NCBI RefSeq assembly: GCF_003334385.1
Contig: NZ_QOWN01000052.1
Direction: 5' to 3' (one strand)
DNA from: Escherichia coli
Lineage (GTDB): Bacteria; Pseudomonadota; Gammaproteobacteria; Enterobacterales; Enterobacteriaceae
DNA length: 32,012 nt
Within the stretch, counting starts at the first letter, position 1, and each line of letters opens with the position of its first letter. The position numbers and the translations under genes are program-made. A model generated the notes under the pieces. It was not told the DNA's origin, did not search any database, and worked only from the letters and a program-made list of their open reading frames with translations. Shown piece after piece: positions 24,160 through 24,270 of the stretch.

Positions 24160-24270
24160 TGTTGCCGGATGATCCTGCCTACGGTTCTGGCCTGGGGACT
24201 TGTAGGCCTGATAAGACGCGTCAAGCGTCGCATCAGGCGCTGAATGTCGGATGTGGCGTGCGGCCTACAA
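24160..24270. repeat. REP/BIME cluster between convergent ygcQ and ygcP
   Basis: GTAGGCCTGATAAGACGCGTCAAGCGTCGCATCAGGC (24202..24238) plus flanking partial REP-like copies. Confidence 0.6.

Follow-up and report, generated by a model that had tools for sequence, protein, structure and literature searches.

Genomic context of the window

The window, the whole stretch of DNA analysed here, is 32,012 nt long, and its positions 75–31764 align in reverse orientation with 2,887.3–2,919.0 kb of the E. coli K-12 MG1655 chromosome, with 99.77% identity and one gap. Judged by this alignment, it is a K-12-like E. coli chromosome segment that runs from gudD to cysH. In the orientation of the window, the genes are gudD (truncated), barA (−), rlmD, relA, mazE, mazF, mazG, pyrG, and eno, followed by ygcG (−), queE, a CRISPR array, ygcE (−), and yqcE (−); then come ygcW, ygcU, ygcS, ygcR, and ygcQ (+), and finally ygcP, ygcO, ygcN, and queD (−), cysJ, cysI, and cysH (+), and hokX/sokX. 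Three extragenic intervals in this segment contain an intact REP. Two lie between convergent genes, gudD and barA (locus A) and ygcQ and ygcP (locus B), and the third lies between the tandem genes cysI and cysH (locus C).

Each end of the window (1–77 and 31934–32012) is an end of an IS186/IS421 element (IS4 family); the two have one and the same orientation, and their perfect 25-nt terminal repeats are at 53–77 and 31934–31958. Because it is bounded by a repeat on both sides, the window looks like a whole short-read contig. The left copy breaks gudD between ...CTGGGG and GTAAAC, a junction present in 0 of 5,426 complete genomes, and the right copy, located 3′ of hokX and before cas3, is common to 1,372 genomes. 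The CRISPR array between queE and ygcE (14670–15059) is of type I-E style, has a period of 61 nt, and comprises seven repeats of 29 nt and six spacers; degenerate copies of the repeat are found about 500 nt past the array (15518–15652). This region is gapless relative to its K-12 counterpart, and there are no cas genes in the window. An intact hok/sok-type toxin-antitoxin locus occupies 31620–31914, with an Rfam sok match at 31620–31777 (113 bits) and, at 31762–31914, a Hok ORF of 50 codons. Since the K-12 alignment ends at 31764, in the hok start codon, the toxin ORF has been lost from MG1655, where sokX alone remains. The sok antitoxin RNA was the sole match in an Rfam scan of the whole window, and the REPs matched no Rfam family.

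Identity of the three intact REPs

We searched the window with the REP core consensus GTAGGCCKGATAAGRCG, tolerating up to three mismatches, and found three matches, all on the + strand and all with zero mismatches, at 1155, 24202, and 30706. In shuffled controls, 0.21 matches are expected and no shuffle reaches three. This consensus search had been proposed in an earlier note on the same DNA, and the three exact matches fall where that note had placed its repeats. Typing against the published y, z1, and z2 consensus sequences (PMC11208160) identifies the copy at 1155–1190 as y rather than z2, in agreement with its earlier description as another REP type, and the copies at 24202–24238 and 30706–30741 as z2 (Table 1). 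The latter two had been called near-identical, and indeed a single substitution and an indel of 1 nt, both located in the loop of the hairpin, are all that separates them, leaving 35 of 37 aligned positions identical. Their starts are 6,504 nt apart and both have GTAG on the + strand, which bears out the 6.5-kb spacing and shared orientation given in the note.

The 5′ GTAG precedes the hairpin foot on the + strand in all three REPs. Folding yields a bulged hairpin for each, with energies between −20.9 and −22.0 kcal/mol and z scores between −4.6 and −5.0; none of 200 shuffles was as stable. All three hairpins keep a 2 × 2 internal loop in which AA is opposite GC; binding by TnpA_REP needs both the GTAG and this AA/GC stem mismatch (Ton-Hoang 2012, PMC3333891). 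A z2 41-mer is present in 5,426 of 5,426 complete E. coli genomes, at 30–79 places per genome among the matches listed (median at least 40), and the z2 sequence is thus a true dispersed high-copy repeat. The convergent and tandem settings of the three loci are those in which REPs are reported to lie, with convergent gene pairs accounting for about 60% of them and tandem pairs for about 40% (Harris 2026, bioRxiv 10.64898/2026.03.23.713779). A T-run is absent after all three hairpins, where the sequences are GCTGAATG, AAGGCAAA, and TAAACACA, and a terminator scan of loci B and C found no terminator-like site in 24158–24304 or 30690–30762.

The three intact copies thus show every feature of the REP family that could be tested. 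Based on the consensus match, the GTAG, the bulged hairpin, the extragenic location at gene 3′ ends, and the high copy number, we conclude that the three sequences are genuine REP/BIME members, as had been proposed; the finding is correct, ordinary, and already known, REPs having been described since 1984. The best explanation of loci A, B, and C, and one in which we have high confidence, is that they belong to the REP (palindromic unit) family of non-autonomous, high-copy extragenic hairpins associated with TnpA_REP/RAYT, which is encoded elsewhere; the window contains no RAYT gene. The earlier list was right about the single REPs but missed the full BIME-1 around the first of them (1070–1218) and the y remnants and L-like motif around the second (24164–24293). 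The REPs at gudD/barA, ygcQ/ygcP, and cysI/cysH are already in the K-12 reference genome, so that their value beyond correct annotation is small, but REP hairpins of this kind are not to be annotated as terminators or small RNAs.

Table 1 REP units and associated motifs at the three loci (window coordinates)
Locus	Feature	Position	Strand	Description
A, gudD/barA	Outer flank, z1 side of BIME-1	1070–1093		GAGACTGATGCTAAACGCAAAATA; aligns with the flank of the unrelated BIME-1 downstream of dppA
A	Decayed z1 REP	1094–1120	−	iREP on the + strand, ends in CTAC; four substitutions and a 2-nt deletion
A	Long (L) linker, 34 nt	1121–1154		Contains IHF-type core ATTCAA-N4-TTA
A	IHF-type core	1130–1142	−	12 nt from the CTAC of y, in the register of the L consensus
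A	Intact y REP	1155–1190	+	GTAG, bulged hairpin; 34/35 to y consensus; −20.9 kcal/mol, z −4.6
A	Outer flank, y side of BIME-1	1191–1218		TAAACACAGGCACTTTGTCACCAATCTG; matches dppA BIME-1 flank TAAACAAAGCGCACTTTGTCAACAATCTG
B, ygcQ/ygcP	y remnant 1	24164–24182	−	GCCGGATG / ATCCTGCCTAC; retains head and foot, with the 15 nt of the hairpin core between them deleted
B	Linker, 19 nt	24183–24201		GGTTCTGGCCTGGGGACTT; from CTAC of y remnant 1 to GTAG of z2
B	Intact z2 REP	24202–24238	+	35/37 to z2 consensus; −22.0 kcal/mol, z −5.0
B	Linker, 7 nt	24239–24245		GCTGAAT; S-linker position between z2 and y remnant 2 (12 nt in REP325)
B	y remnant 2	24246–24268	−	GTCGGATGTGGCGTG / CGGCCTAC; core short by 11 nt; 22/35 to y consensus
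B	L-like half motif	24269–24293	+	IHF-type core ATTCAATTGGTTA at 24281–24293, 12 nt from CTAC
C, cysI/cysH	Single intact z2 REP	30706–30741	+	34/37 to z2 consensus; −21.9 kcal/mol, z −5.0

A BIME-1 between gudD and barA

By its architecture, locus A is a complete BIME-1 placed between the convergent genes gudD and barA. Its alignment with the BIME-1 located 3′ of dppA spans the entire interval 1070–1218, both flanks included, and has 119 identities. The z1 unit is decayed and matches the published z1 consensus at 23 of 30 positions. A strain alignment shows that the O157:H7 orthologue is intact (GCCTGATGCGCTACGCTTATCAGGCCTAC) and that the decayed form is present in the window and in K-12. The hairpin potential of z1 has been lost in the window (−6.8 kcal/mol, z −0.8, versus −13.2 kcal/mol, z −4.5, in the intact O157 copy).

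The linker between z1 and y contains an IHF-type core that is off by one base from the strict IHF consensus WATCAANNNNTTR, as is the consensus of the L family itself. A 38-nt consensus comprising the L motif and the y foot was checked against the genomes and is found in all of them, at a median of at least 32 places per genome among the matches listed, and is therefore a real repeat. The L-type motif CCTACAAA-N7-AAATTCAA-N4-TTR, with a spacing of seven N between ATTGAATTT and TTTGTAGGCC, occurs in the window only at 1130–1159 (−) and 24264–24293 (+), with zero occurrences expected. A BLAST search with the locus A linker alone returned a single copy at that sensitivity; the search finds the linker only at its own locus because the linker has diverged outside the IHF-type core, and its relationship to the L family is shown by the L consensus and by the motif in register.

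A separate hairpin at 1044–1069 (AAACCGGCTC-TATCTG-GAGCCGGTTT) lies directly after gudD, 5′ of the BIME-1. Its T-run is short, and the hairpin probably represents the terminator stem of gudD. In strain NRZ14408 (L009, 324–580), the gudD–barA spacer has an unrelated G+C-rich repeat-like sequence (...CCCTCACCCTAACCCTCTCCCCGGAGGGGCGAGGGGAC...) in place of the BIME-1; this sequence resembles the boxC class of E. coli repeats.

An atypical BIME between ygcQ and ygcP

At locus B, the intact z2 is flanked on both sides by remnants of y. The first remnant begins 6 nt past the ygcQ stop codon and matches the y consensus at 19 of 35 positions with a single 15-nt gap; when folded, neither remnant forms a hairpin (z −0.1 each). 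The 19-nt linker between the first remnant and z2 occupies the same position as the 17-nt linker GGAGGGTGCGGGAATTT in REP325, a BIME-2 array of K-12, and the similarity of the two locus B linkers to those of REP325 is loose. Beyond the second remnant is an L-like half motif, whose end is separated from the ygcP stop codon by 11 nt. The L-type motif shared by loci A and B explains the inverted-repeat pair I3, which joins the 24269–24293 region with 1136–1162.

An atypical BIME is a chimera of BIME-1 and BIME-2 motifs (PMC3333891), and locus B (24164–24293), in which a z2, y remnants, and an L-like core occur together, falls within that definition. The y-z2-y order is that of a BIME-2, but locus B is not one, since its y units are not intact and no y hairpin is present. 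We aligned locus B in six strains, the window and five strains chosen across the identity spread, and found the structure in identical form in 6 of 6, including both y deletions. Where the z2 orthologues of the aligned strains differ, the substitutions affect the GTAG, the bulge, the loop, or a stem position at which a G-U pair is compatible. In O157:H7 F7349 (L003), ygcQ is annotated as a pseudogene with an internal stop, and the BIME downstream of it is unchanged.

A single REP within cysJIH

The z2 REP of locus C follows the cysI stop codon by 16 nt and precedes the cysH ATG by 21 nt. Because of this position within cysJIH, which is known as a single operon, locus C is inside an operon and not at its boundary. 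The earlier description of these elements as lying at operon boundaries thus holds for loci A and B, which are at convergent gene ends, but not for locus C. A promoter scan around loci B and C found nothing in either intergenic region and gave no support for a cysH promoter, and the IHF-type L motif is absent at the cysI/cysH REP. A search of a collection of papers found none that deals with cysJIH and a REP together. At position 30720, MG1655 has one extra A in the z2 bulge (GATAAGAACGCG, versus GATAAGACGCG in the window), and this is the sole gap in the 31.7-kb alignment.

A REP is reported to trigger tmRNA tagging when it lies no more than 15 nt from a stop codon. The foot of the cysI/cysH hairpin is 20 nt past the stop codon and would therefore be outside this range. 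The REP inside cysJIH would be a reasonable candidate for tuning cysH relative to cysJI.

Distribution among E. coli genomes and IS insertions

We counted the three loci in 5,426 complete E. coli genomes. The cysI/cysH REP is present in 5,424 of these, locus B is intact in 4,814, and locus A is covered in 5,209, full coverage being missing in about 217. Locus B is missing in about 335 genomes because the whole yqcE–ygcN block has been deleted. This deletion joins ygcE, which encodes an FGGY kinase, to the queD side, and its right end is at window position 26354, in ygcN. We considered a REP-mediated deletion of locus B and rejected it, since the match resumes at 26354 and not at a REP.

Both IS1397 and IS621 are insertion sequences specific for REPs (PMC1525189). 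In 285 of the 5,426 genomes (L007 and 284 others), the z2 loop of locus B contains an element that RefSeq assigns to the IS1397 family, flanked by a TCAA duplication. Strain 7.1994/NIST0056 (L008) is one of the exceptions to the presence of the cysI/cysH REP: its z2 is interrupted between GTAG and GCC by 1,281 nt that are annotated as IS621, with AG duplicated. This copy, whose transposase is annotated as frameshifted, parts cysH from cysI by 1.28 kb. The natural bridge-RNA target of IS621 is ATCAGGCCTAC (PMC11208160), which is found on the − strand at 24202–24212 and 30706–30716, with no other exact copy in the window, and the insertion at cysI/cysH is located at the CT core of this target.

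The near-fixed presence of the REPs across E. coli makes their presence or absence a weak strain marker, contrary to the use suggested in the earlier note. Better markers would be the IS1397 and IS621 insertions, the decay of individual units, and the replacement or deletion of a whole locus; the IS1397 insertion at ygcQ/ygcP, with its 285 genomes, is usable as a lineage marker.

Possible function and alternative explanations

By analogy with other REPs, an intact REP hairpin, once transcribed, may block 3′-to-5′ exonucleases and thereby protect the upstream mRNA, and it may also cause partial, partly Rho-dependent termination. At loci A and B, both effects would be bidirectional, acting on the convergent transcripts from either side, and at locus C they would favour cysJI over cysH. 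REP325 is both a terminator and a stabiliser, and RNA-seq trends for tandem and convergent gene pairs agree with this (bioRxiv 10.64898/2026.03.23.713779); terminal REPs show no general effect on mRNA half-life and a large locus-to-locus variance (Harris 2026, bioRxiv 10.64898/2026.03.23.713779).

At the DNA level, the L-type motifs of loci A and B are candidate IHF sites, judging from their sequence. The earlier note had listed IHF and gyrase binding as possible for these repeats. The IHF part is consistent with the motif at loci A and B and does not extend to cysI/cysH, and the gyrase part finds no counterpart, as an intact y-S-z2 unit of BIME-2 occurs nowhere in the window; it is this class that is cut by gyrase, according to the passage of PMC3333891 that cites Espeli and Boccard 1997. 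The GTAG together with the bulged stem would constitute the element recognised by TnpA_REP. By MG1655 coordinates, the + strand of the window, which carries the GTAG of all three intact units, is the lagging-strand template. This placement is compatible with the model in which TnpA_REP acts on single-stranded DNA, although three cases prove nothing.

A possible but less likely view is that the REPs are neutral in function. In this view, an earlier spread driven by RAYT left them behind, they are tolerated because they sit at the 3′ ends of genes, and at these loci they have no selected role in mRNA stability, termination, or protein binding. The units that adjoin the intact z2 of locus B have been reduced to hairpin-less remnants that have the same form in every strain aligned, and the decay of z1 at locus A and of both y units at locus B, without replacement, speaks against selection on every single unit. 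The additional bulge A of the MG1655 cysI/cysH REP and the absence of a global half-life effect in Harris 2026 (bioRxiv 10.64898/2026.03.23.713779) also favour neutrality. Against it, the hairpins remain intact at the same positions in 5,424 of 5,426 genomes at locus C and in all strains aligned at locus B, and the z2 substitutions are confined to the loop, the bulge, the GTAG, and G-U-compatible stem positions, although orthology and short divergence alone could suffice to account for this pattern.

The opposite proposal, that particular units are under selection, can be put in a specific form that we offer as speculation and consider rather unlikely. The lone z2 at cysI/cysH would be a selected intra-operon attenuator and stabiliser that sets the CysJI:CysH ratio, and the y remnants at ygcQ/ygcP would reflect selection by which a BIME-2 active with gyrase and TnpA was disarmed and one bidirectional 3′-end hairpin retained.

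It is improbable that the REPs are currently mobile, REPIN-like paired units driven by a RAYT and that the two z2 copies stem from a recent transposition between loci. The two copies do differ in the loop only, and TnpA_REP cleaves and recombines BIMEs in vitro (PMC3333891). However, every genome has dozens of further z2 copies with the same degree of similarity, locus C consists of one REP and not of a pair, and no RAYT gene is found in the window. Moreover, both copies occupy orthologous sites throughout E. coli (5,424 of 5,426 genomes for locus C, and 4,814 genomes and every strain aligned for the locus B structure) and are therefore old.

Ordinary Rho-independent terminators that merely resemble REPs would likewise be G+C-rich hairpins directly 3′ of stop codons. 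This reading is very improbable: none of the three hairpins is followed by a T-run, the terminator scan was empty at loci B and C, and one copy lies within an operon, where the next start codon follows after 21 nt. The copy number and the identity to the REP consensus (34–35 of 35–37 positions) refute it. Chance palindromes with no relation to one another have nothing in their favour and a negligible probability, being refuted by three exact core matches versus 0.21 expected, by fold z scores of about −5, and by the identity of the two z2 copies at 35 of 37 positions.

Comparison with known REP and BIME systems

Locus A shares with BIME-1, the IHF-binding class also called RIP/RIB, the z1 unit, an L linker core in register, the y unit, and the organisation as a single unit. 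It differs in that its z1 arm is decayed in the window strain and in K-12, while intact in O157:H7, and in that its IHF site is a candidate. Locus B has the alternating y-linker-z2-short linker-y order of REP325, the BIME-2 between yjdM and yjdN, and an almost identical z2. Unlike a BIME-2, it has y deletions of 15 and 11 nt, a 7-nt instead of a 12-nt linker, only one unit, and an L-like motif attached to it.

Control by intra-operon REPs is known from the malE–malF REP and from REP325 in yjdMN, and cysI/cysH likewise has a single strong hairpin between cistrons without a U-tract; the number of hairpins differs, with one at cysI/cysH and twelve in REP325. The insertions of IS1397 (IS3 family) and IS621 (IS110 family, with a bridge-RNA recombinase) are as published and nothing new in kind. 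Compared with the REPs of E. coli in general (Stern 1984; Gilson; Bachellier 1999; Ton-Hoang 2012), the three intact copies have the same length of 36–37 nt, the same GTAG and AA/GC mismatch, and the same copy number. Apart from minor loop variants and the extra bulge A of MG1655 at cysI/cysH, they show no difference of substance from the E. coli REP family.
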